20,103 nucleotides of DNA from Clostridia bacterium (GTDB lineage Bacteria; Bacillota; Clostridia; Christensenellales; Aristaeellaceae). This document shows positions 1,252 to 19,626 of the stretch, piece by piece; position 1 is the first letter of the stretch, and each line of letters begins with the position of its first letter. The DNA lies in assembly GCA_030526225.1 (NCBI GenBank), contig JAUNDF010000022.1, forward strand, positions 9,273-29,375, given 5' to 3'. The position numbers and the translations under genes are program-made. Under the pieces are notes generated by a model. It was not told where the DNA came from, made no database searches, and saw only the letters and a program-made list of their open reading frames with translations.

Positions 1252-1980
1252 TTACAGCTCAATTTCCAGCCGGGTGGCGCGGCCAAGGAAGCTGATTTCG
1301 TTCAGCTTCAACGTCACGGCCTCGTACTCCCGGTCGTAGCTCTGCAGCAGCACCGTGAAGCTGTCCAGCTTCTTCACCTTGCGCAGGCAGCGGTGCTGAT
1401 TGTACTCCACCACCATCACGGCGCCGTCCACGGGGCTTTGGGCGGGGACCACAAACACCACATCCCCCCGGTGGATGCGGAAGCCGCGCATGCTGTCATC
1501 CGGCGCGGTAAAGTAGAACACCTTGTCGGGATTGGCCCCCTGAATCTTGCCGTTTTCCACGGGAATCAGCCGGTAGCCGGTGGGCTTCATCACGGCGTTC
1601 ATCACCGGTACGCGCTTGATCACGCTGGAGAGCGCATCCAGCCACACGCTGCCCATGCCGCCCTGCTCCTTTTCGGTGGCGGCCACCTTTTCGGCCTCGG
1701 GCTGCTTCGGCTTCTGCGTCATGGCCTTGGCCATGGCAGGCTGCACGGTGGCCAGGTCCACGGTGGCGGCAATATCATCCAGGGAAAAATCCACCTCGGT
1801 CTGCTCCCGGACGCCGATGGTCTTCAAAATGCGGCGGGCCTGATCATCGGCAATAATGCGGGTGCCGGCCTCCACGGCGGTGATAAAGCTTTCGCTGACG
1901 CCGCACTTTTTGGCCACCTGCTTGGGTGTCATCTTGGCGCGGAGCCGTTCGGTGCGGATTAAATCGCCCAGTCTGCTCAT
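1252..1980 (-). CDS. XRE-family HTH / peptidase S24 (CI/LexA-like) self-cleaving repressor
   Basis: N-terminal HTH (LRAKMTPKQVAKKCGVSESFITAVEAG), a Pro/Glu/Lys-rich linker, and a C-terminal S24 domain with catalytic Ser (APDDSMRG) and Lys (CLRKVKK). I chose ATG at 1978-1980 (MSRLGDL) because GAGG lies 8 nt upstream. The longer ORF to 2058 has no RBS. Confidence 0.85.
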   Translation of the reverse strand: MSRLGDLIRTERLRAKMTPKQVAKKCGVSESFITAVEAGTRIIADDQARRILKTIGVREQTEVDFSLDDIAATVDLATVQPAMAKAMTQKPKQPEAEKVAATEKEQGGMGSVWLDALSSVIKRVPVMNAVMKPTGYRLIPVENGKIQGANPDKVFYFTAPDDSMRGFRIHRGDVVFVVPAQSPVDGAVMVVEYNQHRCLRKVKKLDSFTVLLQSYDREYEAVTLKLNEISFLGRATRLEIEL

Positions 1981-2029
1981 ACTGTCAACCTCACGAATAT
2001 GCTTGATTTTGTGCAAAACACATAGGGGT

Positions 2030-2058
2030 ATTGTACCGCGTTTGCGGCAATTGTGCAA
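2030..2058 (-). promoter_or_regulatory. Candidate sigma-70 promoter of the repressor-S51 operon, with two TTGCACAA operator-like repeats
   Basis: On the minus strand: TTGCAC (2053-2058), a 17-nt spacer, then TACAAT (2030-2035). The octamer TTGTGCAA occurs twice on the plus strand (2009-2016 and 2051-2058), 42 nt apart. One copy overlaps the -35. Confidence 0.5.
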
Positions 2059-2061
2059 CCG

Positions 2062-2529
2062 TCAGCCGCGTGTCAGGTGAGCCAGCAGGCTTTCACAGGC
2101 CTCGGTAATGTCATCCCAGCAGGCGGAAAAATCGCCGCTGTACCACGGGTCGGCGATGTCCCGGGGGCGGTCTGAAAAATCCAGCATGCGGTGGATTTTG
2201 CCCTCTGGGTCGCTGGGGATGATGCGCCTGAGGTTGCGGATGTTCCAGCTTTCCGCGCACAGCAGCAGGTCAAAGTCCTCGTAATCCGCAGCCGTCACCT
2301 GCCGGGCCCGCTTGCCTTCGCAGCGGATGCCGTGGCGGCGCAATTCATCCCTCGCCGGGGGATACACCGGATTGCCGATGCCGTTCCAAATCTCCTCGGT
2401 GCTGGTGGCCGCCGACTCCGCGTAAAACGCCTTCTCCAGCCCCCGCTTTTGCACCATGTCCTTGAAAACAAACTAAGCCATTGGGCTGCGGCAAATATTG
2501 CCGTGGCAAATGAACAGGATTTTCTTCAT
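2062..2529 (-). CDS. Low-molecular-weight protein-tyrosine phosphatase interrupted by one in-frame TAG at codon 19 (2473-2475)
   Basis: ATG 2527-2529 with GGAGAG upstream gives MKKILFICHGNICRSPMA-TAG-FVFKDMVQKRGLEK... in one frame. The CX5R(S) P-loop lies before the TAG and the D-loop DIADPWYSG after it. The total of 155 codons is the normal family size. Stop is TGA. Under the standard code this would be annotated as a pseudogene or as the 131-aa fragment 2062-2457. Confidence 0.85.
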
Positions 2530-2559
2530 CGTCTTTTCTCTCCGTATAAGTGCTGTGTT

Positions 2560-2644
2560 TCTTCTCAAATGCCCGATATTTCCGGGATTGCGGCATTTTT
2601 GCATTTCTTCGTCTGCGGGATATCTTCTCAAATCTTCCCGGATT
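2560..2644. repeat. Two imperfect direct repeats next to the integrase 3' end (candidate arm-type or end-region sites)
   Basis: TCTTCTCAAATgcccgatatTTCCGGGATT (2560-2589) and TCTTCTCAAATcTTCCCGGATT (2623-2644), with starts 63 nt apart, in the 183-bp spacer between the int stop and the LMW-PTP start. Confidence 0.5.
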
Positions 2645-2679
2645 TTCTCATGCTTTTCTCCGCAAAATTGGTAAAATCG

Positions 2680-2704
2680 TTGGTAAATTTCGTGTGTTTA
2701 CCAA
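2680..2704 (-). terminator. Hairpin just downstream of int (weak terminator candidate)
   Basis: TTGGTAAA (2680-2687) pairs with TTTACCAA (2697-2704) around a 9-nt loop, 9 nt after the int stop. Only a modest T-rich tail follows on the minus strand. A third direct copy of TTGGTAAA lies at 2668-2675. Confidence 0.4.
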
Positions 2705-2712
2705 TGGGGTTT

Positions 2713-3912
2713 TCAGCCCTGAGCCAAACGCTGAAGCTCGTCCTTCACATCATCGAAATGCACATGGGTGTAAACATTCATCGTGACGCCGATGTCGGCA
2801 TGGCCCATGATGTACTGCAGCGTTTTGGGGTTCATGCCGGATTTCGCCATGTTGGAGCAGAAGGTGTGGCGGCATACATGCGGGGTCACCTTGGGCATCT
2901 GGATGCGGTAAATCCTGTTGTACTTGTCTACAATGTGCTGGATGTACTTTTCCCAGTGCAGGGCAACCATGGGCTTCTCGTTTTTGTCCAGAAACAGGAA
3001 GCCGATATATCCATCCACCATGGGCTCCACCTTCGGCTTCACACGATTGGCAAGGATGCGGCGGAAACAGGCAGCTACTTCCTCTGTCATGGGGATATAG
3101 CGGACACCGCTTTCCGTCTTGGGCGATTGAATCACATATTCCATCTGTGATGTCCGCTGCAGCTGATGATCAACCTTGATGCGCATCTGGTCGAACTCGA
3201 TATCAGCCATGGTCAATCCACAGAATTCGGAAATGCGCAGCCCCGTGTGGAAAAGGATGTAGATGCCATCGTAGTACCGGCAGAAATGCTTGTCCTCCTG
3301 GATGAACCGCAGCAGCTCCCGTTCCTGCTTTCGGGTGATGGCCTCCCGGGTAACGGAATCATTCACAATCACAGAGGCCAGCTCGAAGCCAAAGGGATTC
3401 TTGCGAATCAGGTCATCATCCACCGCCATCTGAAAGGCCGGACGCAGCACACCTCTGATGGAGTGAATGGAGCTGTAGCCCCGACCATCCACCTGTTGGA
3501 GCTTAATCAGCCACGCCTTTGCATCAGACAGGCGTACCTTGTCGATACGCAGGCTGCCGAAGGGGTCTTTGTTCAGGAGGCTGATGACCGTTCGATAACC
3601 GGCGCGGGTGTTGTGGGTTACGCCGGTTTTCAGGGATACATATTTCTCAACCAGCTCCACCACCGTGTAATTCCCGCCGTGGGTCACAATGTGGTCAAAG
3701 AGGTCTGCCTGAATCTGCTTTTCCTTCTCCCGCAGAGAGGGCTCACGTTTTTTGCCCTTGGGCATGGGATCGTTCTTGTCCAGCCGCCAGCTGTACACAT
3801 TCTTTTCTTTGCCGTCCTCGTCGATATAACGGTAACGATACCGCCCATCGGCTCGCTGATATTCGCCATCGTGCAGAATCCGGTTACGGCTGTCTCGTCT
3901 TTTTTCGCTCAT
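2713..3912 (-). CDS. int: Tyrosine recombinase / integrase, Tn916 Int family, with N-terminal arm-binding domain
   Basis: The N-terminus MSEKRRDSRNRILHDGEYQRADGRYRYRYIDEDGKEKNVYSWRL closely resembles the Tn916 Int arm-binding domain. The catalytic region has HTGLRISE (Arg), HVCRHTF (His-x-x-Arg), GHADIGVT and NVYTH (Tyr). RBS is AAAGGAGAG. Stop is TGA. Confidence 0.95.
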   Translation of the reverse strand: MSEKRRDSRNRILHDGEYQRADGRYRYRYIDEDGKEKNVYSWRLDKNDPMPKGKKREPSLREKEKQIQADLFDHIVTHGGNYTVVELVEKYVSLKTGVTHNTRAGYRTVISLLNKDPFGSLRIDKVRLSDAKAWLIKLQQVDGRGYSSIHSIRGVLRPAFQMAVDDDLIRKNPFGFELASVIVNDSVTREAITRKQERELLRFIQEDKHFCRYYDGIYILFHTGLRISEFCGLTMADIEFDQMRIKVDHQLQRTSQMEYVIQSPKTESGVRYIPMTEEVAACFRRILANRVKPKVEPMVDGYIGFLFLDKNEKPMVALHWEKYIQHIVDKYNRIYRIQMPKVTPHVCRHTFCSNMAKSGMNPKTLQYIMGHADIGVTMNVYTHVHFDDVKDELQRLAQG

Positions 3913-3934
3913 GGAATCTCTCCTTTCAAAAGAA

Positions 3935-3980
3935 GGAGAGCCAGACTTGCGATTTCATTGTATCACAAATCTGACTCTCC
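3935..3980 (-). terminator. Long xis-int intercistronic hairpin with U-tract (attenuator/terminator candidate)
   Basis: On the minus strand, GGAGAGUCAGAUUUG pairs with CAAGUCUGGCUCUCC (15 bp including 2 G-U pairs, 16-nt loop), followed by UUCUUUUG. The 3' arm CUCUCC can alternatively pair with the int RBS GGAGAG (plus 3918-3923). Confidence 0.55.
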
Positions 3981-4031
3981 GTATAGCTATGTCATGGGAA
4001 AACGGCAGTTTTGCCATGATGGTTTTACAAA

Positions 4032-4268
4032 TCAGACAGCGGTGGCCTGATCCAGGTACCGCTCGAACTTTTCGCGCTTAATCAATGCCCGGTTGCCGTT
4101 CATCACATAGAAATCCTCATGCGGATGCTGGTCAATGAGCATGCGCAGTTTTCCTTCGCCGATGTGGTAGTACCGTGCTGCTTCCTCGATGGTCAGCGTA
4201 TACCGGCGCCATACGGGGATGTCATAATACTTCATTTCGTTTTCGTTGTTCTTGATATTTGCCATCAA
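4032..4268 (-). CDS. xis: Excisionase (Tn916 Xis-like HTH protein)
   Basis: The 78-aa product contains [30 protein letters not shown]...[19 protein letters not shown]. This closely parallels Tn916 Xis ([29 protein letters not shown]...IMNGNRIQIKRKQFEKI). It lies directly upstream of int. RBS is GGAGGTG. Confidence 0.9.
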   Translation of the reverse strand: [78 protein letters not shown]

Positions 4269-4308
4269 TATTCACCTCCAGAGATTAGAGCAGAGAGAGG
4301 CCGGTGCG

Positions 4309-4491
4309 GTGTCTGACACACTGACACACCGGCACACACGGTTTGAAAACTTTTTTCTTTCTGCTCCTATGTTTTTACTATTTCAAACTCTTTATATTTT
4401 AGTGTGTCAAGTGTGTCAAAAGCCGGAAACCCTTCTCTCATAAGGGTTTGACCGACACACTGCCTGACACACCCGCTGACACACTGTGTCA
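4309..4491. repeat. Iteron field: at least 8 copies of TGACACAC / GTGTGTCA in both orientations around an AT-rich core
   Basis: Forward copies lie at 4314-4321, 4322-4329, 4465-4472 and 4477-4484. Degenerate forward copies lie at 4331-4339 and 4453-4460. Reverse copies lie at 4402-4409 and 4411-4418. Terminal palindromes are GTGTCTGACAC (4309-4319) and TGACACACTGTGTCA (4477-4491). An 8-bp hairpin AAACCCTT/AAGGGTTT lies at 4427-4449. Confidence 0.85.
4391..4419 (-). promoter_or_regulatory. Candidate xis-int promoter embedded in the iterons
   Basis: On the minus strand: TTGACA (4414-4419, part of an iteron), a 17-nt spacer, then TATAAA (4391-4396). Three iterons then lie in the roughly 115-nt leader before xis. 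Confidence 0.5.
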
Positions 4492-4508
4492 AAAGGGAAT
4501 GAAATTGA

Positions 4509-4727
4509 TTAAGTTATGGCCTTGAACCCTTCATCTATACGGGTTTCTCGGAGGCCGAAGACGCTGCGCGGCAGCGCCCTGATACAATCATCGGCACCAG
4601 CGTGCCGTTCTTTCATAAAATATTCAATTGTCAGTGAATTGGTTTGCCGTTCGTACTGTCTGTGCTTCCCTCCCTTGGCTTCAAAGACTATGGGTGGGAC
4701 GGGCGACCCACCCATGATTTGCATCAT
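4509..4727 (-). CDS. Hypothetical small protein (72 aa), start overlaps the relaxase stop
   Basis: The ATG at 4725-4727 overlaps the relaxase TGA (4724-4726) as ATGA, which suggests translational coupling. I recognise no motif. Stop is TAA. Confidence 0.3.
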   Translation of the reverse strand: MMQIMGGSPVPPIVFEAKGGKHRQYERQTNSLTIEYFMKERHAGADDCIRALPRSVFGLRETRIDEGFKAIT

Positions 4728-5962
4728 CGTTCATATGCATGCCGTTTGCCGGTGTGCAGCTTCGGCTTCAGTTTTTCAACCACCGCAGGGCGAACAGCCT
4801 CGGTAATCTTGAACTTGGTATCGTCTTTGCGGATGGGAGACATCAGGCGAATCCGCACATCTTCGGCCATGGAGAGCAAGGCGCTGAACAAATCTTCCTT
4901 TGTTTTGCCAAGCCATTGCAGAATCGTTCCCCTGACGGTAGGCGGGGCATCACTGCCGGCAGCATAGATGGCGTTCTCGAACCGAAGGTCGATTTGACGG
5001 GCAGTCACTTCATGCACGATCTTGCTGACATCCTCAACGGCCTTGTCGTAGCACTCCGAAGTGACCTCATCCAGCAGAGTGTCAACATCCTCCAGCCGCA
5101 GGAGCTTTGCATCCAGCTCGGCTTCTTTCTCAGCCAGGGCAGCGTCCTTGGCTTCGATTTCAGCCTTTTGTGCTTCAATCATTGCCTTCTGCTTTTCGAT
5201 GATGTAATCGTTCTTCTCCAGATACTCCCGACCGCCGTAGATGGCCTCGCGCTCGACTTCCACCCCGTGGGCTTGACAGATGTCAAGGAGCAGCTCCCGG
5301 CAGATGTTGTCGAAGGTCTTCTTCCGATGATTGTCCCGGCCCGGCTTCTGATTGGGATACGGCAAGGGAATCCCCAGCTGCTCCAGCGCCTTCTCCTGCT
5401 TCGGCTCCACCTCGCCGTAGCGGTTGGTGATGTCGAAAACCTGCCTTGCATGGATATGCGGTGAGGTTTCGTCCAAATGCAGTGCCCAGTCCAGTACATG
5501 GACATGGCTGCCATATTTCTGTTCCAGCGTGTCGAAGAACTCGGTCACGATGGCTGTCAGCACCTCCGGCGGAGGACAATCGCCCTCCTTGCCGATTTGG
5601 TACACGGTCTCCTCGGGGCAGAATCGCTTGTCCTTCAGCAAATCGTCCACCGTGCGGTTGCGCTTCATGTGGCCGGATTTCTTGTTGCGCTGATGCTGTC
5701 CGGCGATGTAATCACCATAGCGGCGTTCATACTCATCGTGTTCGTGCTGATTGAAGGTGGGATACAGGCCGCTCATCTGCTCCTCATGGGTGCGCAGACC
5801 GTTCCGGCAATCCCAGTAGAGGTTGTGCTGAGTTCGGGCTTGGTCGATGTTCTCGGCGTTGGCTACATCGAAGTTGCGGTCGTTGTGCTTGGGGTTGTAA
5901 ACGCCGTGCTTTCCGGCTCGACCGTTGTGCCGGGAAACACGCTTCTTTTCAGGCATGGACAT
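4724..5962 (-). CDS. MobV-family relaxase (Mob_Pre / plasmid recombination enzyme type)
   Basis: It carries the signature HLDETSPHIHA (HxDExxPHxH metal-binding motif of MobV relaxases) and a coiled-coil-like C-terminal half (EKQKAMIEAQKAEIEAKDAALAEKEAELDAKLL). I chose the start at 5960-5962 (MSMPEKK) because a perfect AAAGGAGG lies upstream. The longer ORF to 6034 is rejected. Confidence 0.9.
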   Translation of the reverse strand: MSMPEKKRVSRHNGRAGKHGVYNPKHNDRNFDVANAENIDQARTQHNLYWDCRNGLRTHEEQMSGLYPTFNQHEHDEYERRYGDYIAGQHQRNKKSGHMKRNRTVDDLLKDKRFCPEETVYQIGKEGDCPPPEVLTAIVTEFFDTLEQKYGSHVHVLDWALHLDETSPHIHARQVFDITNRYGEVEPKQEKALEQLGIPLPYPNQKPGRDNHRKKTFDNICRELLLDICQAHGVEVEREAIYGGREYLEKNDYIIEKQKAMIEAQKAEIEAKDAALAEKEAELDAKLLRLEDVDTLLDEVTSECYDKAVEDVSKIVHEVTARQIDLRFENAIYAAGSDAPPTVRGTILQWLGKTKEDLFSALLSMAEDVRIRLMSPIRKDDTKFKITEAVRPAVVEKLKPKLHTGKRHAYER

Positions 5963-6240
5963 GCCTCCTTTCTTTTTGGTTGGTAGCCTCCCCGCAGGGA
6001 GCCTGTGTTTTTCGGCAGGCAATACCCAGTACAAAGTGTCGAATCCCTCCGGGCCACTTCGCTTTCAACACTTCACTGGGCCAAAGGGCTGCGGCCCTCT
6101 GGACTTCCGGGGAATACAACAGGGCCACGCCCTTCGGTACGACCCTGTTGATGCGGTGCTCCTTTGGTGCAAATTGATGCCATCTCGCCGACCGTCTCGC
6201 ACCATCGGAGCCGGATTTGGTGCGGATTCGCACCGGCCGG

Positions 6241-6582
6241 TCAGCTGCCCATCATGTCCAGCAGCGTGTCGATGTCCTCGTCATCCGGCGCATCATCTGC
6301 GACGGGCTCGGACGGTTTTGCCTGCCTCATTGCCTGCATCAGCGTTGCGAGTGCGGAGGAGGACAATTCCTCCCGGACAATGGCTCGGATGGCATCCTTC
6401 TGATGCTCATCAAAGCAGGGGGCTTCCCGCTGATGACCGTAGTAGCCATTGACCGCATGAACGATGGCCTCGGTCAGTTTGATATGCTGCTCATCCCGCG
6501 CCTGATACAGAAGAGTCAGCGCTGCCTGATGCTCAGGCTTGTCTGCATACAGCCGAAGGGTTGTGCGAAAAATCTCCTTCAC
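6241..6582 (-). CDS. ParR-like partition adaptor candidate (ribbon-helix-helix-like N-terminus, acidic C-terminal tail)
   Basis: The 113-aa ORF has a GTG start overlapping the parM stop (GTGA). The N-terminus FRTTLRLYADKPEHQAAL looks like a strand-helix (RHH) element. The C-terminus DDAPDDEDIDTLLDMM is acidic. The position downstream of parM matches parMR organisation. The function is inferred from context only. Confidence 0.45.
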   Translation of the reverse strand: MKEIFRTTLRLYADKPEHQAALTLLYQARDEQHIKLTEAIVHAVNGYYGHQREAPCFDEHQKDAIRAIVREELSSSALATLMQAMRQAKPSEPVADDAPDDEDIDTLLDMMGS

Positions 6583-7505
6583 TGCGCCTTCGCCTCACGC
6601 TTCAGCCGCCGTTCTGCAAGATACTCATAGCCCTTGGCAGAGGCGTGAATGTCGCTGATGATGGTCACCCGATTGGCATCATACTGCCCGAAATTGCGAA
6701 TCAGACACCCGCCACCGCCCACAATCCACAGGCGCATGGTCTTGGGATCGTATTCGTGCTCGCGGAGCTTGCGCATGATTTCTGCCACATAGGCCGCGGC
6801 AGCATCACGAATCACCCGCACATACTCCGGGTCGATATCCGCGGTGCCCTCGCGCATCACCTGCTCAATGGCCACATCGGGCACCGTGCGGCCGCACAGA
6901 CGGGTCAGGGCTTCACGAGCCCGCAGCACGCACTGATGAGTGCCGTACTTCTCCGTGTAGCACTGGTCCGGCACGGGCTTGCGGTCGTTGATGCTCATGA
7001 CAATCATGGTGCCGTTGCCGATGTCGCAGAGCATGTTGGCTCCGGTGAACTTCTTCAGCTCGGGGATGACGGCGGAGTAGCCCTGGGCGTACACATCAAC
7101 GCCCACAATATCGATATGGTAGTCGATGCCCCGCCAGACGAAGTCCACATGGCGGTTTTGCCACAGATACGCCCGAAAGGCTTCCCGCTGATTGTCCACC
7201 CAGGTCAGGGGCAGGCCCACCGCCAGATGCACCGCCGCCGTGGTCATGCGGTTGTGCCACAGCTCCTGCCCGATGCCGGCCAGGGTCAGGATGTAGTGGT
7301 CCAGATTGCTCACCTTGTCCAGGGTGAATTCCCGGTGGCCTGCGCCGATGACATAGTACTTGCCATCGTAAATGAGCAGGTCGTGGGCATGGGCGGGTTC
7401 TGCGTCATAGCAGACCACGCTGGCCGGGAAGATGCCGTTGGCCGTCTTGATGTTGCCATAGCCGTTGTCCAGGCCGATGATGTGGATGTTGTTGAATGTT
7501 TTCAT
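6579..7505 (-). CDS. parM: ParM/StbA-family actin-like segregation ATPase
   Basis: The 308-aa product has the actin-fold phosphate-1 motif IGLDNGYGNIK near the N-terminus, then CDIGNGT and WIVGGGG motifs, as in ParM/StbA. RBS GAGG lies 8 nt upstream. Confidence 0.85.
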   Translation of the reverse strand: MKTFNNIHIIGLDNGYGNIKTANGIFPASVVCYDAEPAHAHDLLIYDGKYYVIGAGHREFTLDKVSNLDHYILTLAGIGQELWHNRMTTAAVHLAVGLPLTWVDNQREAFRAYLWQNRHVDFVWRGIDYHIDIVGVDVYAQGYSAVIPELKKFTGANMLCDIGNGTMIVMSINDRKPVPDQCYTEKYGTHQCVLRAREALTRLCGRTVPDVAIEQVMREGTADIDPEYVRVIRDAAAAYVAEIMRKLREHEYDPKTMRLWIVGGGGCLIRNFGQYDANRVTIISDIHASAKGYEYLAERRLKREAKAQ

Positions 7506-7550
7506 ATGGTTACCTCATTCTTTCTCCTGCGTTTGCAGGGTAAAATAATA

Positions 7551-7574
7551 GGCAGACAGCAATTGCCATCTGCC
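7551..7574. promoter_or_regulatory. Palindrome upstream of parM (candidate parC/operator)
   Basis: GGCAGAcagCAATTGccaTCTGCC has outer 6-bp arms and a central CAATTG that are self-complementary. It lies about 45 nt upstream of the parM start. Confidence 0.35.
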
Positions 7575-7635
7575 ATAGGGAAAAAACGGGAATCACAGGT
7601 GCACAATCAAGGGCACCACCTCCTTTCAAAAGGGC

Positions 7636-7668
7636 AAACAAAAACGCCAACGGATGATTCCGCAGGCG
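7636..7668 (-). terminator. Terminator-like hairpin in the parM leader (copy A of a duplicated 29-nt module)
   Basis: On the minus strand, CGCCTGCGGA-ATCA-TCCGTTGGCG is followed by TTTTTGTTTG. It lies about 25 nt downstream of the candidate promoter at 7701-7729 and is nearly identical to the hairpin at 8463-8486. Confidence 0.5.
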
Positions 7669-7700
7669 CTGCATGGTTTTTATCCACTTTTACATAATAC

Positions 7701-7729
7701 AGTATATCATGTCAAGAGCGTGCCATCAA
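7701..7729 (-). promoter_or_regulatory. Candidate promoter of the parM-parR operon
   Basis: On the minus strand: TTGATG (7724-7729), a 17-nt spacer, then TATACT (7701-7706). The -10 lies inside the palindrome ATACTGTAT. Confidence 0.4.
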
Positions 7730-7824
7730 CGTAATGATTCGTCAGGGAGTGTCGGCTGCTGTCAGTCGTTTGTCCGGCGTTGTCATCAGCTACGAGGACA
7801 GCTGGCCTGCGGTCTTATCAGCCG

Positions 7825-7868
7825 AAAAAAGCATAAGAAAAAGGAGCCTGATTTCGTCAGACTCCTTT
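7825..7868 (-). terminator. Rho-independent terminator of the sigma-like regulator gene
   Basis: On the minus strand, AAAGGAGUCUGA pairs with UCAGGCUCCUUU (12 bp with one G-U pair, loop cgaaa), followed by UUCUUAUGCUUUUUU. It lies about 40 nt after the stop at 7909. Confidence 0.7.
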
Positions 7869-7908
7869 ACCCATCCTCTGCATCATACAGTATAGCACAA
7901 GTTTTCTG

Positions 7909-8370
7909 TCAATTCATGTCACCGGCTGTCGCTTCCTGTCTGATTCTGTCACCAATTTCAACCTCCAGCAGCCGGTTCAGTTCTGCAAGTGCTCTGTCCT
8001 TCAGGGTGTAGACAAACTGCCGGGCGATGAATTCCTCCCGGGCGATGTCGGTGATGGTGCGCCCTTCCAGATAATGCTTCCGCAGAATGGCGGCGCCGTG
8101 GTTCGTGTTCAGCCTGCCCAGCATATCATCAATCTTGTTCAGAATCCGCGTCCGCTCGTTTTCCAGTCGATTGGCCTCGTCGGATGCTTCTACATAGCTG
8201 AGAATGGCTGTTTCTTGAACAGACACATCCAAAGTCCTCTGGACACCGCAGCGTTTGATGGATGCGGCAATCCTCTCCGCAGTCTCTCTGCAGCGGTCTT
8301 CCTTCATCCGCGCAGTGAGGAGCTTCTTGTTAATCACAACGCCTTCCGCCAGAAAATCCAATGCCAGCAT
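7909..8370 (-). CDS. Sigma-70 region-4-like HTH regulator (DUF1492/ArpU-like, analogous to regulators on Tn916-type elements and phages)
   Basis: The C-terminal AILRKHYLEGRTITDIAREEFIARQFVYTLKDRALAEL resembles a sigma region 4 HTH. I chose the start at 8368-8370 (MLALDFL), which has a G-rich RBS and a promoter just upstream. The longer ORF to 8559 would run through the promoter and terminator. Confidence 0.7.
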   Translation of the reverse strand: MLALDFLAEGVVINKKLLTARMKEDRCRETAERIAASIKRCGVQRTLDVSVQETAILSYVEASDEANRLENERTRILNKIDDMLGRLNTNHGAAILRKHYLEGRTITDIAREEFIARQFVYTLKDRALAELNRLLEVEIGDRIRQEATAGDMN

Positions 8371-8403
8371 CAACAACACCCCCCGAATAGCGTTCTTAAA
8401 AAG

Positions 8404-8450
8404 AGAACAAATGTTCTTGTTTATTATAGTGCTATTTGGGGATGGGGCAA
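8404..8450 (-). promoter_or_regulatory. Promoter with a Cheo-box-like palindromic operator
   Basis: On the minus strand: TTGCCC (8445-8450), a 16-nt spacer, then a perfect TATAAT (8423-8428). Five nt further downstream is the perfect 14-bp palindrome AGAACATTTGTTCT (8404-8417), which matches GAAC-N4-GTTC. Confidence 0.55.
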
Positions 8451-8452
8451 GG

Positions 8453-8486
8453 GAAAGAAAAACGCCGGCGGATGATTCCGCTGGCG
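8453..8486 (-). terminator. Rho-independent terminator of the AEC transporter gene (copy B of the duplicated hairpin module)
   Basis: On the minus strand, CGCCAGCGGA-ATCA-TCCGCCGGCG is followed by TTTTTCTTT. It lies 44 nt after the stop at 8531. Confidence 0.7.
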
Positions 8487-8530
8487 TGGGTGTGTATTTG
8501 CCGTCCTGAATCTGTTTGCCGGGCTGATTT

Positions 8531-9484
8531 TCACACTGCCAGCAATCCCATCTGCGCAAGGGAGAAAATCCAAACGAAGATGGTCAATACGCTGACCACC
8601 GTGCTGATAAACACAAACTGTCCCGCAAGCTCTCCGTCGCCGCCCATGTTTTTGGCCATGGGATAGGAGCCGGACGCAACAGGGGTGCCGAACACGACCA
8701 GAACCAGAAACAGTTCAACACCGCGGAGGCCAAGAATATATCCGATGGTTACAAGAATCAGCGGCAATATCAGCAGCTTGATGCTCAGTGTGGGCACAAT
8801 GTATTTCAGGTTTTTGCCGATTGCATTGAATTGCAGTGTCCCGCCCAGTGCAAACAAAGCAAGAGGCGAAGACATGTTTGCAAATGCTTTTATAGGTGTT
8901 TCAATGCTTTTAGGCAAATGGATGCCAAGCGCAAAGAAAACAATGCCGAAGAAGCAGCCCTGCAGCATCGGGTTTTTCATCAGCTTGATCAGCAGTGACT
9001 TGAATTCGATTTTTTGACTGCTGCCGTTGAACATTTCAAGAATCAGAACAGAGGTGATGTTGTAGATGGTAATTACCACCATAATCAGCATACCTGCCAC
9101 CGCTGCCTTTTCACTGCCGTAGATGGTGGTTGTCAGCGGGATGCCGAACAGCACAAAGTTCGACCTGAAGATTGCCTGGATAATCACACCGCGCCGGGGA
9201 TTTTCTTTTACAAGCCGGGGTACAATCAACAGCAGAATCCCCTCAACAATCAGGATGGCTGCTGCACAGAAAACGAGCAGCGTTGTTGAAGGCAGATTAT
9301 CAGGTGTCGCGCTATAAACGCTGTTGAAGGTCATAAACGGGAACATGATGGTAAACACAAGCTTCGTCAGCCGGTCCAGAAACTGCTTGTCCACAACACC
9401 GGCAGCGGCAGTGCCATAGCCCAAAGCCAGATAGCACAGGAATGGGATTACCGCGTTAACCGCTGTCAGAAAGCTCTCGAACAT
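8531..9484 (-). CDS. AEC (auxin efflux carrier) family transporter
   Basis: The 317-aa polytopic membrane protein has a typical AEC N-terminus (FLTAVNAVIPFLCYLALGY) and about 10 hydrophobic segments. RBS is AAGGAGGAG. Stop is TGA. Confidence 0.85.
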   Translation of the reverse strand: MFESFLTAVNAVIPFLCYLALGYGTAAAGVVDKQFLDRLTKLVFTIMFPFMTFNSVYSATPDNLPSTTLLVFCAAAILIVEGILLLIVPRLVKENPRRGVIIQAIFRSNFVLFGIPLTTTIYGSEKAAVAGMLIMVVITIYNITSVLILEMFNGSSQKIEFKSLLIKLMKNPMLQGCFFGIVFFALGIHLPKSIETPIKAFANMSSPLALFALGGTLQFNAIGKNLKYIVPTLSIKLLILPLILVTIGYILGLRGVELFLVLVVFGTPVASGSYPMAKNMGGDGELAGQFVFISTVVSVLTIFVWIFSLAQMGLLAV

Positions 9485-9499
9485 AAGCGCTCCTCCTTA

Positions 9500-9542
9500 C
9501 AGAAAAGAAGGCAGGCACATGCCGGAAAAGCATGCACCTGCC
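9500..9542 (-). terminator. Hairpin with T-tract between the RraA-like gene and the AEC gene (partial terminator/attenuator candidate)
   Basis: GGCAGG..CATGC (9510-9522) pairs with GCATG..CCTGCC (9530-9542) with a 2x2 internal mismatch. On the minus strand it is followed by TTCTTTTCT, directly before the AEC RBS. Confidence 0.45.
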
Positions 9543-9559
9543 CGGAAGAATCCTGCAGA

Positions 9560-10255
9560 TTATTTCATCATATCCAGCACCCACTGGGGAGCGAGCTGCG
9601 GCAGTTCTCCGCCTTCTGCTTTTGCCTTGCGATAGGCGGCAATGGTTTCATTGCGCTTGTTCTCGTAGGCAAGCTTCTTCTCGGCCTCGGCCAGAACGGT
9701 CTCAATATGTTCGACGGGAATTACGCAAACACCATCGGAATCGCCAACCACCAAATCACCGGGATTGACCTTTACGCCGGCGCACATGATAGGCGTGTTG
9801 ATGTTGCCTTCGTTCTTCTTGATGGGGCCCCGGGGCATAAAGCCCTTGCTGTATACGGGGAAGTTCAGGTCAATGTTGCCGTCACGGTCGCGGGTGCAGC
9901 CATCGATGACCATGCCCTCAAAGCCAACAGCCTGACAGGCGCCCATAATCAGATCGCCGAAGTAAGCGCGGCCTTCATAGCCCTTGCCATCGATGACCAT
10001 GACATAGCCTTCAGCCTGAAAACTGTAGCTGGCCACATGGATGGGGAAATTGTCGCCATTGTCCGTCTCAACTGTCAAGGCGGTACCGACAACGGTCATG
10101 CCGCGTTCAACAGGCATAACAGCCATGTCCATGCAGCCGTCGTTGAGAATGTCCAGCTTGGCAGCCTTCACACCGTCCAGCAGCAGCGGTACATTCAGTT
10201 TCTTGGCCCGTTCAATAATATCCGCACTCAGCAGCGGAGCACATGCATTAATCAT
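9560..10255 (-). CDS. RraA / 4-hydroxy-4-methyl-2-oxoglutarate aldolase-oxaloacetate decarboxylase family protein
   Basis: GDLIMGACQAVGFEGMVIDGCTRD matches the RraA/HMG-aldolase core (DG-x-x-RD). I chose the start at 10253-10255 (MINACAPLL), which overlaps the permease stop as ATGA. The upstream extension to 10396 is Arg/Cys-rich and is rejected. Confidence 0.8.
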   Translation of the reverse strand: MINACAPLLSADIIERAKKLNVPLLLDGVKAAKLDILNDGCMDMAVMPVERGMTVVGTALTVETDNGDNFPIHVASYSFQAEGYVMVIDGKGYEGRAYFGDLIMGACQAVGFEGMVIDGCTRDRDGNIDLNFPVYSKGFMPRGPIKKNEGNINTPIMCAGVKVNPGDLVVGDSDGVCVIPVEHIETVLAEAEKKLAYENKRNETIAAYRKAKAEGGELPQLAPQWVLDMMK

Positions 10256-12177
10256 TTCGTCAGAACCTCTTTCTTTACTGTTTTTGCAGCCAAAACGAGA
10301 ATGCCGCCGACAATCAGCAGACCTGCAGCGTTCAGAAGGAGGGGCTCCTTCACCAGCAGCATCACACCGCCGGCAACCAGTGCTGCCCGCTCCCATATCT
10401 TCAGGTCACGCTTGAACCAGCCGAACAGACCAAAGGCCATACCGGCACAGCCAATGGCAGCGGTTACCAGACAGAAGATAACCATGGGGCTGAAGCCGAA
10501 GGTGTTGGCAGCCACATCATAGCAAAGCAGTTCAGTGTTATACAGGAATACGAAAGGAATTACAAAACCGGAGATTGCCAGCTTGATCGCCTGGAAACCG
10601 GTTTTCCACATGTCGCCGCCCGATATGCCGATGGCGGCAAAAACCGCAAGTGCAACAGGCGGAGTAATGGCAGCCACCACACCGTAGTACAGCACAAACA
10701 TATGCGCGGAAATGGTTGCCACGCCAAGGCTGATCATGGCAGGTGCTACCAGCACGCTCAGCACGATGTAGCAGGCGGAGGTAGGCAGGCCCATGCCCAG
10801 AATGATGCACACAAATGCAGTCAGCAAGCCCATGAAGAAGATGTTGCCGCCGGAAATGGTGGTAATCAGGCCGGAGATGCTCAGGCCCAGACCGGTCTTA
10901 TTGATGGCGCCAACAATCACGCCGGCAATCATGCAGGCGATGGACACGCTCATGATGCTCTTTGCAGAGGAAATGCACAGATTCATCAGATTCTTGGGCG
11001 TGAACTTCTTCGGGTCCTTCATCAGGCCGATGACAACGCACAGGCCGATGGTAATCAGTGCAGCGCGCTGGGTGGACAGGCCAATGACCATCAACACAAT
11101 CAGGACCACGATGGGGCTGAAGTAATACCAGCCTTCCTTGAAAATCTGACCGACTGTTTTTGCATTGGGGTCAGGCTCCTGAACCGGGATATGGTTCTTA
11201 TGAGCATAAGAGAAAATGGAAACAGAGAGCGTAAGGTAATACAGCACTGCGGGCAGGAGTGCAGCCAGACAGATGGTGGTGTAGGGCAGATTGGTTGCCT
11301 GTGCCATCAGGAATGCAACGGCACCCATAACCGGGGGCATAATCTGACCGCCATTGGATGCAACGGCTTCTACCGCACCGGCTGTGTCTTTGTCAAAACC
11401 GGTTTTCTTCATCAGCGGTATGGTAAAGGTACCGGTCGTTACTACGTTAGCAGCACCGGAGCCGTTTACCATGCCCATCAGCATGCTGGAATACACAGCA
11501 GCCTGAGCAGGACCGCCGCATACACGGCCAAAGGCTGCGAAGGAGATATCCACAAAGAATTCGCCGGCACCGATGAAATTGAGCATGGAGCCGAAAATGA
11601 CGAACAAGAATATGAAATTGGCCGCCGTACTCAAAGCACTGCCAAACAAGCCTTCGTCACCGACGACCAGATACTTGGCAAAGTTGTTCATCTTAACCGG
11701 CGCAGTCCGGAAGGGCTCCGGCAGGTACTTGCCGACCAGTGTATAGATGAAGAAAACAAGTGCCAGAGTAGGAAGCACGGGACCCAGTGCCCTGTAGGCA
11801 ATAATCACTGCAACGGCAATGAAAATCTGGCAAATCAGGTACTGATAATCCGAAACCTTTGCCGAATTGGTATTGCGCATTTTGTATGCTTCCAATGCGA
11901 CCAGGATGGTTAATACAATCAGAACAACATCCACGACACGGGAGAGGGTCGACTTGGCCTTCACATGCTTTCCCTTGAATTTCAGGGGCTTTACAAGCAG
12001 GAAGAATGCAATAATCAGGGAGCCATGCACAATCGCCTGGGTGGTGTTGTTCAGCGTCAGCACAGGCGAGGCTGCCAGCAGATGGAACAGGCAAAGCACT
12101 ACTGCTACCACAACGGAAAGCACGTAGGCGGCCTTCTCCGTACCGCTGCCATGGATTCTGGCTTCGGTTTCGCTCAT
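10252..12177 (-). CDS. TRAP transporter fused permease (TAXI-type, DctQM-like)
   Basis: The 641-aa highly hydrophobic protein is typical in length and architecture of the fused permeases that partner TAXI binding proteins. RBS GGAGGAA lies 7 nt upstream. Confidence 0.9.
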   Translation of the reverse strand: MSETEARIHGSGTEKAAYVLSVVVAVVLCLFHLLAASPVLTLNNTTQAIVHGSLIIAFFLLVKPLKFKGKHVKAKSTLSRVVDVVLIVLTILVALEAYKMRNTNSAKVSDYQYLICQIFIAVAVIIAYRALGPVLPTLALVFFIYTLVGKYLPEPFRTAPVKMNNFAKYLVVGDEGLFGSALSTAANFIFLFVIFGSMLNFIGAGEFFVDISFAAFGRVCGGPAQAAVYSSMLMGMVNGSGAANVVTTGTFTIPLMKKTGFDKDTAGAVEAVASNGGQIMPPVMGAVAFLMAQATNLPYTTICLAALLPAVLYYLTLSVSIFSYAHKNHIPVQEPDPNAKTVGQIFKEGWYYFSPIVVLIVLMVIGLSTQRAALITIGLCVVIGLMKDPKKFTPKNLMNLCISSAKSIMSVSIACMIAGVIVGAINKTGLGLSISGLITTISGGNIFFMGLLTAFVCIILGMGLPTSACYIVLSVLVAPAMISLGVATISAHMFVLYYGVVAAITPPVALAVFAAIGISGGDMWKTGFQAIKLAISGFVIPFVFLYNTELLCYDVAANTFGFSPMVIFCLVTAAIGCAGMAFGLFGWFKRDLKIWERAALVAGGVMLLVKEPLLLNAAGLLIVGGILVLAAKTVKKEVLTK

Positions 12178-12261
12178 TCTCTGTTCCTCCGTTTTTAATG
12201 ATGGGAGACCCGATTGCTCGAGTCCCCCGTTTCAGCATCAGATTCAGTTATTTGAATGCAA

Positions 12262-13230: not shown

Positions 13231-13299
13231 GACAAAATTCTCCTTTTCTATTTTTTCACCTGAAACACACGTTCAGGGTGAACTCCGTTTTGTAAGATT

Positions 13300-14040: not shown

Positions 14041-14063
14041 CGCTCATTCCTCCAAATCTTATA

Positions 14064-14960: not shown

Positions 14961-15035
14961 GGTTTTACTCCTCTCACATTGCAAAAATAAAACACTTTCT
15001 GGACAAATTTTACCTTTGCGCGTTGTTGTGACTAA

Positions 15036-15064
15036 AAGATAGCATAAACAAAAACGGTTGTCAA
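15036..15064 (-). promoter_or_regulatory. Candidate promoter of the hydrolase-to-transporter operon
   Basis: On the minus strand: TTGACA (15059-15064), a 17-nt spacer, then TATCTT (15036-15041), within an AT-rich divergent intergenic region. Confidence 0.5.
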
Positions 15065-15131
15065 TATCGTTTTGCATAAATTTTTTACAAAATTGTTCAA
15101 CAATCTCGTTTAATTTGATTCGAGGACAATG

Positions 15132-15160
15132 TTGACTTTTTTTCTTACTAATGATATCAT
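15132..15160 (+). promoter_or_regulatory. Candidate promoter of the GntR-family regulator gene
   Basis: TTGACT (15132-15137), a 17-nt spacer, then TATCAT (15155-15160). The leader of about 105 nt contains a 7-bp hairpin GAGACAG/CTGTCTC (15226-15245). Confidence 0.55.
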
Positions 15161-15273
15161 AACCACAAGCAGAGAAGACCAAGGAAGCTTTCAGCAATAA
15201 TTGAATTTTCCTTTCTTTTTTCTGAGAGACAGGACTTGCTGTCTCCTTTGTTCAGTGAAAGGAGATTATCCAT

Positions 15274-15918
15274 ATGGCCGCTACACAAACAACACAGGTC
15301 TATCAGGACTTGAAACATAAAATACTGCATAGTGGTTATGCGCCTTCCGAAAGTCTTCCCGAAGCCGATTTGGCAACAACATATTCCGTCAGCCGCAATA
15401 CCATCAAAAAAGCACTGCTTATGCTGGAAAACGACGGCCTGGTCGTTATCGAACCAAACAAGGGCGCCAAGGTTCGCTCTTATTCCAAAACAGAAGTGCT
15501 CGAGTATCTGGAAATCCGCGAAGTGCTTGAGGAACGGCTGATGAAGCTTGCCGTGCCCGCCATGACAGCAGATGATTTCGAAAAGCTGGATAGAATTACA
15601 GCATAGATGCTGCAGGCAAAAACAGAAGGCCGCCTGTCAGATTATTCATCCGGCAACCGGGCCTTCCATTCTGTTTTCTATGATGTATGCCCGAACCGTT
15701 CCCTGGCGCAGCTGATTGTCAACCTGAAGAACCAGATGAGAAAATACAACAGCAAAACCGTTCTGATTCCCGGCAGAACCGACAATGGCTACCAGGAACA
15801 TCTGGCCATTCTTGAGGCAGCCCGTTCCGGCGACGGCGAAACAGCAGCCAAAGCCATCGTCAAGCACATTCAGGGCGTACGGCAAATATTTGAGGATAAT
15901 TTCGATTTGCTGTTCTGA
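15274..15918 (+). CDS. GntR/FadR-family transcriptional regulator interrupted by one in-frame TAG at codon 111 (15604-15606)
   Basis: The N-terminal winged HTH (LPEADLATTYSVSRNTIKKALLMLENDGLVVIEPNKGAKV) and the C-terminal FCD-type domain (NRAFHSVFYDVCPN..., EHLAILEAARSGD) are in the same frame. They are joined by ...DRITA-TAG-MLQAKTEG. The combined 214 codons is the normal family size. RBS is AAAGGAGA. Stop is TGA. Confidence 0.85.
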
Positions 15919-15968
15919 AAGAATTGCTGCATCAAAACCGCTTTCAGTAATTTACATAGGAACAAATG

Positions 15969-16022: not shown

Positions 16023-16095
16023 GCCTTTGATAACATTGTATCTGGAAATGTTGTTAATACTCATCCAACGCAGCCCGCGCAACTGTCCTCCATCA

Positions 16096-17625
16096 TCAAT
16101 CACTTTTCCTCTCCCTGTATTCTCCCGGGGTCATGCCATACTGCTTTTTGAAAAGGCGGTTGAAATAGAAGGGATCGTCAAACTCGACCAGAGAGGAGAT
16201 GTCCTTCGCAGAGGCACTGCCCTTGCGCAGCAGGGAGGCTGCTTTTTCCAGACGGATACGCGTGAGAAACTGCAGAATGCTCTCGCCGGTTTCCCGCTTG
16301 AACAGCCGGCACAGGTAGCTTTTGTCCAGATTAATCATGCCGGCGAGCATTTCCAGGGTGATGCGGTCTGCGTAGTGCTGCTGCAGGTACAGAATCACCG
16401 TTCTGACATCGGCGTTTTTTCCATCATCAGCCGTGTCCGGCAGCTGCAGCAGAGACGGCAGCAGGCTGTGCAGCAGGGAGCACAGCTGCTGAGAAGAGGT
16501 GCACGCAAACACCTGCACATGGCTGGCAAAGGTAATGCTTTCGGAGACATTTGGCTGATTGATAATCAGGCGCTGGAGCAGCAGAAAAATGTAATGCTTC
16601 AATGATTGGGGAGCGGTTCTGCTTTCCCTGCAGCGCTGAATCAGGCTTTGCACCCAGATATCCGCGCTTTCCGGATTTTTTGCGAAGGCATCTGCCAGCT
16701 GAACAGCGGCTGTTTCGGGTGGAGGGGAAGGGACCTCCTGACTGAACGGACTGCCGTCGGCAACAGTACAGCACTGCGCCGATTGTGCTGATTGATAGAA
16801 GAAGTCCTGTGCATCCTGTCTGCAAATGCGCAGCTGCTCAAGCAGACCCTCCATGGAAGAAAACGGCTGTGAAACAAGAATGCCGGCGCTGCAGTTCAGG
16901 TATGTCTTCAGCTGACGCACCATCTGGATGCCCCGCCGCTGCAGCATGGAAGCATCCTGCGCGAATGATACAGGGACCAGGCAGAGATGCTATTGCTCAT
17001 TCAGGCACAGCACATCCGCCTGCTCATTCAGGTTTGCCAGCAATATGTTGCGGATGCTCTTGCGTGCCGCGGCGCGCTGCTCGGCGTTGATAACCACATT
17101 CATCAGCCGGTAAGGTGTGTGGGGCAGCATGATGGCCGGGTCTTTGCAGTTTTCTTCTGTCAGTGTGTAGCCCAGCAGAAAGTCTCTCAGCAGCGTTCTT
17201 CTGTAATCATCGGTCATTGATGTGCCGATGTGCCGGGCATCTGTGCAGCTTGTCAGGTTGGCAGAGAGCTGCTCAAGGGCTTCACGCATGGAATCCTCTT
17301 CCATGTCCGTCTTCAGCAGATAATCCCTCGCCCCTAACTGCATGGCCTGACGGACCAGGGAAAAATCGGAATAATTGCTGAGGACAAGGATGGCCCCCTG
17401 AAACCCGCCTTTTTTCAGATGCCGGATCAGCTCAAGGCCGTCCATTTGGGGCATTTTCATATCCGTGATGACGATGTCCACCGGGGTGCTTTCCAGAAAA
17501 GTCAGCGCCTCTTCACCGTTGGCAACCATGCCGGCAATGGCCCATGGCGTGTCAGCCCAGGGCAGCAGATTGCGGAAGGTCATCCGGATGACAGGCTCAT
17601 CATCAACCAAAAGCAGCTTGTACAT
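16096..17625 (-). CDS. YesN-like response regulator (REC + AraC-type HTH) interrupted by one in-frame TAG at codon 212 (16990-16992)
   Basis: The start MYKLLLVDDEP at 17623-17625 overlaps the kinase stop (TAATG). The REC domain includes DIVITDMKMPQMDG. After ...CLNEQ-TAG-HLCLVPVSF the same frame continues to the AraC HTH (ITLEMLAGMINLDKSYLCRLFKRETG...FDDPFYFNRLFKKQYGMTPGEYR). The 509 codons is typical for the family. Confidence 0.9.
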
Positions 17626-19337
17626 TATTCCACCTCCTTTTGCAGCGGAATGATGATTTCGCAAACGGTTCCCTTGTCCGGCGCTCCGGAAAGAGATACA
17701 CCGTAGGAGGACCCGTAATGCAGCCGGATGCGCTCGGCCACATTGGAAAGCCCGATGCCGGAGGACTTGCCGCCTGCATCCTTTTCTTCACGAAGGCCGG
17801 TGCCGTCATCAGCTACTGTCAGATGAAGACAGGGGCCCTCACAGCGCGCACTGACCGTGATGGTCATGATGCGCCCGTTATCGGGCATGCCGTGAATGAT
17901 GGCGTTTTCCACCAGAGGCTGCAGAATAAAGCGGGGCACGGGCACAGCATTGGCGCTGTCATCCACATGGAATATCAAATCAAAGCCGTCGCCGTACCGC
18001 AGCTTCTGGATGGAGCCGTAGCAGGCCAGGTCCTGCATCTATTCAGACAGCGGATGCATATCCTTTTTGCCCAGCAGGGTGCTTTTCAGCAGTGTGCACA
18101 GGGATGAAATGCCATCGTGAAGTGCAGGCACACCATTGAGGTCGGCAATCCATTTGAAGGTGTTCAGCGTGTTGAACAAAAAATGCGGGTTAATCTGATA
18201 CTGCAGAGCGGAAAGCTCCAGCTCCCGCTTGCGTTCCTCGTTTTTCTTCTGCTGCTCTGCCATGTCGCAAAGCCGGGCAATCAGGTTATCCAAGGTTCGG
18301 GCAAGCACGCCCAGCTCATCGGGGCTGTGGTCGCTCAGGGGCTGGGACAGGGCAGAAAGGTTTCTGCCGCAGTGCTTCATCATTTGCTGGATGGGCTGCA
18401 TAATGGAGGCGTAAACAAGCAGCATGGCAAGAAAACTGATGACAAACAGACCGGCCGCCACCAGTATCAGTGTCTTCAGCACACCCTGCATCCTGCCGTA
18501 GATTTCCGAATAGGGGATGGCGACAAAAAAGCGAAAGCCGTACACATCGCTGACACAGCTGGTCAAAAGATATTGGCGGCTGTTCAGGGAGAAGGTGCGC
18601 TCGGAGCCGTCAGTCAGCTGCGCTGCTTCGCCGGCGAGGGTTTCGTTTTCGGCCGCATCATCCGGAAAAAACAGTGCGCCGTCGGCAGAAGAAAAGAAGG
18701 TGATGGCGCCGCTGCCGAAGGAAATATCCGCCAGAATTTCGCCGCGCAGCAGCTGGGGGCTGAGGCAGATCATGATGTAGCCCTTTTCCGACAGCGTGGG
18801 GGCAAAGCGGAACAGCTTGCGGCCCAGAATCAGGCCGCCGTTGGGATTTACGCGCAGATAGCCGCCGGCCGTGCCTGTGTTGAATTGCTCCAGCACATCC
18901 CGGGGCAGAATATCAAAGGTGCTTTCGTAGCCGGCTGATCCAATCAGCGAGCCGTGTGCGTCATATACCTGCACATCGCGCAGATGCTTCTATGCGCCAA
19001 AGGTTTTCAGACCCTTCCGGATGAACGTGCCCAAGGGCCCTGCGTATGTCTGCCCGGCATCATAGGCATCAAACAGCGCATTCAGTTCGTCTGACAGGCT
19101 GAGTGCATTCAGGTATGTGCCGTAGGGAACAAGGGCTGTCTACAGGTTCCGAGTCATCAGCCGCAGGGATTGGAACGTATGCTCCTGCACCTTTTCGCGG
19201 ATGGTTGTTGTGTAAACATTGCTGGCATACAGGCCGAATACAAGCACCGGAATCAGCGAGCAGGCAAGGATGGCAAACAACAGCCTTGTCTGAATACGAA
19301 ACCGGCGAAGGATACGGATGAGGATATTCCGTTTCAT
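17625..19337 (-). CDS. YesM-like sensor histidine kinase (2 TM segments, HAMP, His_kinase PF06580-type, HATPase) interrupted by three in-frame TAGs (19140-19142, 18990-18992, 18039-18041)
   Basis: A single frame runs from ATG 19335-19337 to TAA 17625-17627, 570 codons. It contains TM1 LLFAILACSLIPVLVFGLYA and TM2 LILVAAGLFVISFLAMLLVYA. The H-box region is LQYQINPHFLFNTLN, the N-box is LQPLVENAIIHG, and the G-boxes are DDGTGL and GIGLSNV. The ORF track splits it into 65-aa, 311-aa and 137-aa pieces plus an unlisted segment, and every break is a TAG. Confidence 0.9.
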
Positions 19338-19547: not shown

Positions 19548-19551
19548 TGCA

Positions 19552-19580: not shown

Positions 19581-19626
19581 GCAATTATCAAATAAGTCGC
19601 GTGATTCGCGCAACGGAGGTACACAA

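Follow-up and report, generated by a model that had tools for sequence, protein, structure and literature searches.

UAG most probably serves as a sense codon, decoded as glutamate, in the Clostridia bacterium from which the 20,103-nucleotide stretch of DNA analyzed here (the window) derives. Several unrelated genes that are otherwise intact and under constraint carry in-frame TAG, and no other internal stop, nearly always at positions that homologs fill with glutamate. We consider it likely that this pattern represents an undescribed bacterial genetic code (UAG=Glu, with UAA and UGA as stops) in two or more uncultured lineages that are Clostridia-like (the Q4C54_ MAG and R28__coassemble_113), presumably established through a tRNA-Glu-derived CUA tRNA and the loss of RF1.

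The TAG codon of the LMW-PTP gene

The 20-kb window contains six in-frame TAGs in four genes, encoding an LMW-PTP, a GntR regulator, a response regulator, and a histidine kinase that carries three of them. The LMW-PTP gene displays the following features.

2062..2529, minus strand: LMW-PTP gene, 155 codons with the TAG read through; terminal stop TGA (2064..2062)
2473..2475, minus strand: in-frame TAG, LMW-PTP codon 19, just 3' of the CX5RS P-loop (CRSPMA-TAG-F)
2538..2543, minus strand: Shine-Dalgarno sequence GGAGAG of the LMW-PTP gene, 9-14 nt 5' of the ATG at 2529..2527

Translated from this ATG on the minus strand, the gene reads MKKILFICHGNICRSPMA, then the TAG at 2475..2473, then FVFKDMV and onward. 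The read-through product matches the Pfam LMWPc profile (PF01451) from end to end (1-144 of 144, E=3.5e-31, 108.8 bits against a cutoff of 23.2), and its homologs in the PDB include YfkJ (4etm, E=3e-29). The P-loop C8-H-G-N-I-C-R14-S15 is intact, with columns that are invariant in 31 orthologs, and the general-acid loop D127-P128-W129-Y130 is retained downstream of the TAG. The codon for the conserved glutamate after the P-loop (CRSP-x-A-E) is TAG here, and this feature of the family is present only if TAG is read as Glu.

An earlier note, made from the sequence alone, had claimed that the TAG at 2473-2475 replaces a near-invariant glutamate in a gene whose ribosome-binding site, start codon, and catalytic Cys, Arg, and Asp contexts are all preserved. 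Both claims hold: the proposed alignment with close orthologs places Glu opposite the TAG in 31 of 31 full-length sequences (59-70% identity), the solved structures 4etm (B. subtilis YfkJ), 2gi4, and 5jnu (mammalian) have Glu in the same column, and the Shine-Dalgarno sequence, ATG, C8-X5-R14-S15, and D127-P-W-Y are in place. The note took the TAG to be decoded rather than terminating in an otherwise intact gene, and all 40 of the 40 conserved columns downstream are indeed kept. It had weighed a decaying gene, with GAG in relatives and TAG accompanied by other degenerative changes in this strain; relatives do carry Glu codons at the TAG sites, but other degenerative changes are absent.

The note had also raised the Met at 2455-2457 as the true start of a truncated product, which is not borne out. 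This Met-25 codon (2457..2455) opens the 131-aa ORF annotated by NCBI as MDO4483736.1, but AAGGA directly abuts the ATG, leaving no properly spaced Shine-Dalgarno sequence, and the product would lack the P-loop. The ATGs that trail two of the TAGs have no Shine-Dalgarno sequence either; true start codons, by contrast, are preceded by GGAG or AGGAG. We rejected a Met-25 start, and separate translation of the downstream fragments in general, on these grounds and because essential domains would be missing. As judged from sequence comparison, the conserved Glu that follows the P-loop is most probably specified by codon 19, and the product is most probably a full-length, active phosphatase.

TAG codons in three further genes of the window

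The remaining five in-frame TAGs lie in a transcriptional regulator gene on the plus strand and in a two-component system on the minus strand.

15274..15918, plus strand: GntR/FCD regulator gene, 214 codons read through; stop TGA
15604..15606, plus strand: in-frame TAG, GntR codon 111; GAG (Glu) in the nearest homolog (70% identity)
16096..17625, minus strand: YesN-like response regulator (Response_reg + AraC HTH), 509 codons read through; stop TGA
16990..16992, minus strand: in-frame TAG, response regulator codon 212; the Pfam receiver domain and AraC HTH lie on opposite sides
17625..19337, minus strand: YesM-like sensor histidine kinase (HAMP, His_kinase, HATPase_c), 570 codons read through; stop TAA
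18039..18041, minus strand: in-frame TAG, histidine kinase codon 433, between the His_kinase and HATPase_c domains
18990..18992, minus strand: in-frame TAG, histidine kinase codon 116, in a variable loop of the sensor domain
19140..19142, minus strand: in-frame TAG, histidine kinase codon 66; Glu in the 10 nearest homologs (53-61% identity)

Each read-through product corresponds in length and domain content to single proteins elsewhere. Full-length homologs of the GntR regulator measure 214-215 aa and combine PF00392 with PF07729; relatives of the response regulator are single proteins of 511-516 aa; and histidine kinase homologs (572-581 aa) align over 100% of the query. Among the GTDB species representatives, the kinase has no match above 38% identity. 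In relatives the kinase and response regulator are single uninterrupted genes in the same order (contigs L002-L005), and the GntR gene is syntenic with that of a further relative (L006), where RraA, DctM, TAXI, PIG-L, DUF6282, and GntR follow in the same gene order without interruption. Pfam annotation of the kinase gene and of the response regulator gene is cut exactly at an in-frame TAG.

The columns opposite these TAGs point to glutamate with differing force. Histidine kinase codon 433 faces Glu in 120 of 120 homologs, and relatives carry GAA there. Opposite response regulator codon 212, 20 of 30 full-length relatives, among them the 12 cluster representatives with the best scores, have Glu, and one has Gln; the site is GAA in L002 and AAA in L003. 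Codon 66 of the kinase is GAA or GAG in L002 and L003, with Glu, Gln, or Ser among more distant homologs, and the column of GntR codon 111 holds Gln in 42 and Glu in 31 of 120 family members. Codon 116 of the kinase, where the nearest 13 homologs have Gly and most others Ser, is the sole site of the eight found in both organisms (see below) without a Glu alignment. To go by these alignments, UAG is most probably decoded as Glu in all three of these genes as well.

The stop codon TAA of the kinase gene and the start codon ATG of the response regulator gene share one base (TAATG, 17623-17627), an overlap arrangement also found in relatives, which suggests translational coupling.

Under the standard code, PGAP/NCBI annotates the TAG-split pieces as separate proteins (2062-2457, 15607-15918, 16096-16947, 17625-18038, and others) within the series MDO4483736-753 (locus tags Q4C54_). 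Among them are a 131-aa 'LMW-PTP' that lacks the P-loop (MDO4483736.1), an 'FCD domain-containing protein' (MDO4483750.1), and a 'hypothetical protein' (MDO4483753.1). In large protein databases, TAG-split fragments also stand as the representatives of clusters (P0380, P0382).

TAG is the only internal stop, and the affected genes are intact

The codon table first compiled for the window covered 17 genes, four of which bear TAGs. Translation of the window genes across stops, together with this table, reveals neither an in-frame TAA or TGA nor a frameshift. The 17 genes terminate in TGA (11) or TAA (6) and never in TAG, and four ORFs added later end in TGA (3) or TAA (1), giving 14 TGA, 7 TAA, and no TAG as terminal stops among 21 genes. 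Every substantial ORF of the window that closes on TAG under the standard code is a fragment of one of the TAG-bearing genes. Over the approximately 25 kb examined in both organisms, TAG ends 0 of 21 genes in the window and 0 of 5 in the second contig, as compared with 1 of 36 in standard-code relatives (contigs L002, L003, and L006). Since relatives also rarely use TAG stops, the lack of TAG-terminated genes constitutes weak evidence for reassignment.

Downstream of the TAGs, 130 of 132 conserved columns are retained overall, comprising 40/40 in the LMW-PTP, 34/34 and 19/20 in the histidine kinase, and 37/38 in the GntR regulator. A kinase gene with three neutral nonsense mutations should show lost invariant residues and indels; that 53 of its 54 conserved downstream columns are intact argues for translation through the TAGs.

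These counts bear on the view that the TAGs are ordinary nonsense mutations and the four genes recent pseudogenes in a decaying or mutator genome, which we regard as very improbable. It has in its favor that a single G>T change turns GAG into TAG, that most of the sites are GAG or GAA in relatives, that NCBI annotates the pieces as separate proteins, and that the organism is known from one sample. Against it, all six lesions are TAG. GAG makes up only 19% of the one-step precursors of TAG in the window, so the probability that at least five of six would come from Glu codons is about 1e-3, and even under a model of pure G>T change, in which GAA should yield TAA no less often than GAG yields TAG, the probability is about 0.01. 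Neither the mixed lesions nor the relaxed downstream constraint that mark pseudogenes were found.

Assembly and sequence context of the TAG codons

All data for the window organism stem from a single sequencing run (SRR24915835), of which the Logan contigs represent an independent assembly. These contigs match window positions 1360-3753 and 13701-19918 with 0 mismatches and contain all six TAGs; the LMW-PTP region, TAG included, lies in contig L001 (0 mismatches over 2394 bp).

No common motif surrounds the six window TAGs. In this small sample (n=6), A comes next in four, A stands directly before the codon in four, and ATG is the next codon in two. Folding of the 93-nt stretches that start at the eight TAGs of both organisms reveals no unusually stable or shared RNA structure (z -1.5 to +1.2). 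The lack of both a common motif and a downstream RNA structure makes the decoding look general rather than site-specific.

Sequencing or assembly artefacts, or Pyl/Sec-type recoding through a local RNA element, are scarcely credible as the source of the pattern. MAG contigs may hold consensus errors, and TAG is the codon for Pyl; against this, the second assembler is identical at six of six sites, and an independent JGI assembly displays the same pattern. Motif-linked base-calling error was rejected, as the six contexts have no motif in common and the second assembler agrees everywhere, and a SECIS- or PYLIS-like local element was rejected because the eight 93-nt folds are unremarkable and dissimilar. 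Pyl itself is further disfavored by columns that are Glu and not Lys-like, by genes that are not methylamine methyltransferases, and by a window that holds no pyl gene.

A second organism with in-frame TAG at glutamate positions

We scanned JGI metagenomes for the pattern G-N-I-C-R-S-P-M-A followed by TAG, which carries approximately 44 bits, so that chance matches are negligible. The scan returned one match, on contig R28__coassemble_113 (L091), whereas the same TAG motif has no match in viral contigs. We examined 4.7 kb of this 46-kb contig, which has a G+C content of 66%. Its LMW-PTP gene (3364-3807) carries its TAG at codon 19, just as the window gene does, and is intact after it. The two phosphatases are 49% identical, and the L091 protein ranks 109 of 120 by this comparison, indicating no special kinship.

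The neighboring gene on L091 encodes an AlgI-type MBOAT acyltransferase (840-2237) with an in-frame TAG at codon 259 (GFTFP-TAG-NFDYPY). In ten AlgI-type homologs from five phyla, this column holds Glu in nine and Gln in one. A 'PENF' motif at this site, which we presumed to be shared by MBOAT proteins, was not confirmed by DltB, a distant protein and the only solved relative, which has Ile at the TAG position. All five genes of the examined segment end in TAA or TGA, and TAG amounts to about 3% of its Glu codons.

A lone phosphatase match might be a stray pseudogene, but the TAG at a Glu position in the adjoining MBOAT gene speaks against this. The same pattern in two adjacent genes of an unrelated metagenome contig also counts against reading the window genes as pseudogenes.

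Glutamate is the residue favored by the aligned columns

Five of the six window TAGs lie opposite Glu in the nearest homologs, and two of these columns are invariant (31/31 and 120/120). Across both organisms, seven of eight in-frame TAGs in six genes fall at Glu positions. At the Glu sites of the window, the relatives' codons are GAA or GAG. The probability that at least six of seven random positions would align with Glu is 6e-7. Codetta-style log-odds for seven columns combined give Glu +9.5 nat, with Gln as the runner-up at -4.8 nat. The proposal of the earlier note that TAG stands for glutamate is thus strengthened by these log-odds and extends to five further TAGs in the window and two on L091.

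TAG is known to be read as Gln in phages. A decoding as Gln or another residue (supE-type or code 15), or by near-cognate tRNAs after RF1 loss, is nonetheless improbable here. Such a reading would agree with the GntR column, where Gln is the most frequent residue (42 vs 31 for Glu), with the frequent Gln at histidine kinase codon 66, and with the one MBOAT homolog that has Gln, and Gln is the usual natural outcome of amber reassignment (for eukaryotes, PMC8629427). The GntR and codon 66 columns do admit Gln in addition to Glu. The two invariant columns, however, hold no Gln at all, and the response regulator column contains 20 Glu to one Gln. The codon of origin also argues for glutamate: CAG and GAG are equally abundant in the window (157 vs 156), yet the TAGs evidently arose from GAG and not from CAG. 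A phage code 15 does not fit either, given a chromosomal context that is syntenic with relatives, the negative log-odds for Gln, and the empty scan of viral contigs.

A possible route to UAG decoding

RF1 is the sole bacterial release factor for UAG, and RF2 covers UAA and UGA. Decoding of UAG as glutamate would presumably involve a tRNA with anticodon CUA that is charged by GluRS and reads UAG, along with an RF1 that is lost or weakened; RF2 would still read UAA and UGA, which serve as stops here. We infer these tRNA and RF1 steps from the way termination works in bacteria and from reassignments already described. Many Bacillota possess a non-discriminating GluRS that takes both C36 and G36 anticodons, and this tolerance at anticodon position 36 makes an A36 variant plausible. 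Neither the window nor the related contigs contain a tRNA gene, and an Rfam scan of the window was empty.

The near-absence of TAG stops in relatives implies that RF1 loss and TAG capture would be cheap. The window holds six TAGs against 334 GAG and GAA codons, so that TAG provides about 2% of Glu codons. Together with the avoidance of TAG stops in relatives, this rarity and the similar value on L091 fit a codon-capture scenario in which the assignment is recent or of low preference.

A code that is ambiguous or conditional, in which RF1 is present and a suppressor tRNA (perhaps regulated or borne by a mobile element) reads part of the UAGs, is possible but unlikely. It would entail reduced or conditional expression of the TAG-bearing genes and is a variant of glutamate decoding, the two not being mutually exclusive. 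TAG is rare, at about 2-3% of Glu codons, and the genes sampled with TAG are regulatory or accessory (phosphatase, two-component system, GntR regulator, and MBOAT). A purine 3' of the codon favors amber suppression in E. coli, and the A that follows four of the six window TAGs provides such a context. Ambiguous amber decoding is, moreover, documented in Pyl-using archaea (PMC12626013). Countering these points, no gene ends in TAG in either contig, and the inefficiency of partial suppression would compound over the three TAGs of the histidine kinase.

Neighboring elements in the window

Immediately upstream of the LMW-PTP gene is a Tn916-family integrative mobilisable element (2713-8559, minus strand), which comprises the following genes, with further ORFs of no assigned family.

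2713-3912, minus strand: integrase (Integrase_DNA + Phage_integrase), member of a 90%-identity cluster of 1,808 members
4032-4268, minus strand: Tn916-type Xis
4509-4727, minus strand: small ORF
4724-6034, minus strand: Mob_Pre-like relaxase (weak)
6579-7505, minus strand: ParM-like actin

None of the genes of the element has an in-frame TAG and none closes on TAG, and a search of the element against a plasmid collection gave no match. Short CTGACACAC-type direct repeats occupy 4313-4482, between xis and the next ORF, and could be a regulatory or oriT-like site. Although the Int/Xis element lies 183 bp upstream, we rejected an integration-junction artefact, as the 5' end of the LMW-PTP gene has no att-like direct repeat.

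Beyond the element, a conserved operon (8531-15918) encodes an AEC-family transporter, an RraA-like aldolase, a fused TAXI-TRAP permease (DctM), a TAXI solute-binding protein, a PIG-L deacetylase, and a DUF6282 protein, with the GntR/FCD regulator as a divergent gene; the segment from RraA to GntR is syntenic in L006. Because the longest RraA ORF (9560-10396) shares 145 nt with the DctM gene, its true start is probably later (the L006 protein has 232 aa).

Comparison with known genetic codes

All known bacterial code changes reassign UGA according to Shulgina and Eddy (PMC8629427). The 2026 gTranslate preprint (10.64898/2026.05.24.727570) recognizes only tables 4, 11, and 25 for prokaryotes and cites genome-wide UAG reassignment for archaea (Pyl) alone, and Kivenson et al. 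describe TAG as a stop in bacteria, barring a few Pyl proteins. We found no bacterial UAG=Glu code in the searchable literature, the coverage of which excludes subscription-only papers.

UAG is read as Glu in two eukaryotic nuclear codes, those of peritrich ciliates (table 30) and Blastocrithidia nonstop (table 31) (PMC12153298), and there, as here, it stands in frame at conserved Glu positions. In those codes UAA and UAG change together and a single eRF1 is modified, whereas in the present bacterium only UAG is apparently reassigned and UAA is still the stop of 7 of 21 genes, a pattern that loss of RF1 with retention of RF2 would be expected to produce. The bacterial UGA codes (table 4, UGA=Trp; table 25, UGA=Gly) resemble the present case in converting a stop to sense through loss of one release factor and gain of one new tRNA anticodon, and both are detected via in-frame stops at conserved columns. 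They differ in that the codon here is UAG, the implied release factor RF1 and not RF2, and the residue Glu. Given that RF2 covers both UAA and UGA, a change confined to UAG would be the natural counterpart of UGA changes with RF2 loss.

Code-15 phages (TAG=Gln; crAss-like, Lak) also have in-frame TAG in prokaryotic-type genes and use a suppressor tRNA, but their TAGs reside in phage genomes and encode Gln, in contrast to chromosomal syntenic genes whose columns favor Glu. Archaeal Genetic Code 34, in which all TAG is Pyl (10.1101/2024.09.30.615893), is likewise a genome-wide loss of the TAG stop in prokaryotes and likewise hard to see by coding density because TAG is rare; it relies on PylRS/tRNA-Pyl and a non-standard residue in archaea, as opposed to the standard residue Glu, inferred here for bacteria. 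Amber-suppressor (supE and others) and recoded, RF1-deleted E. coli strains (PMC11903333) illustrate that bacteria survive UAG as a sense codon once RF1 is dispensable. Those laboratory strains, however, are engineered or partial suppressors. We know of no natural lineage with a Glu-inserting amber suppressor.

Implications

If UAG is indeed read as glutamate in these organisms, this would be the first natural case of a cellular prokaryote assigning UAG to a standard amino acid, and the bacterial genetic codes would gain a new table. A systematic annotation error would also come to light, in which NCBI records split genes and coding-density heuristics are blind to the change. A cheap screen follows from the approach used here, as searching for TAG at invariant-Glu motifs yielded a second case on the first attempt. 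The organisms would represent a natural counterpart of the RF1-free state that synthetic biologists have engineered. With TAG rare and relatives avoiding TAG stops, they would further provide a test case for codon capture versus ambiguous-intermediate theories, and they would offer an evolved Glu-accepting amber tRNA/GluRS pair in which to study how anticodon identity rules can be bent.
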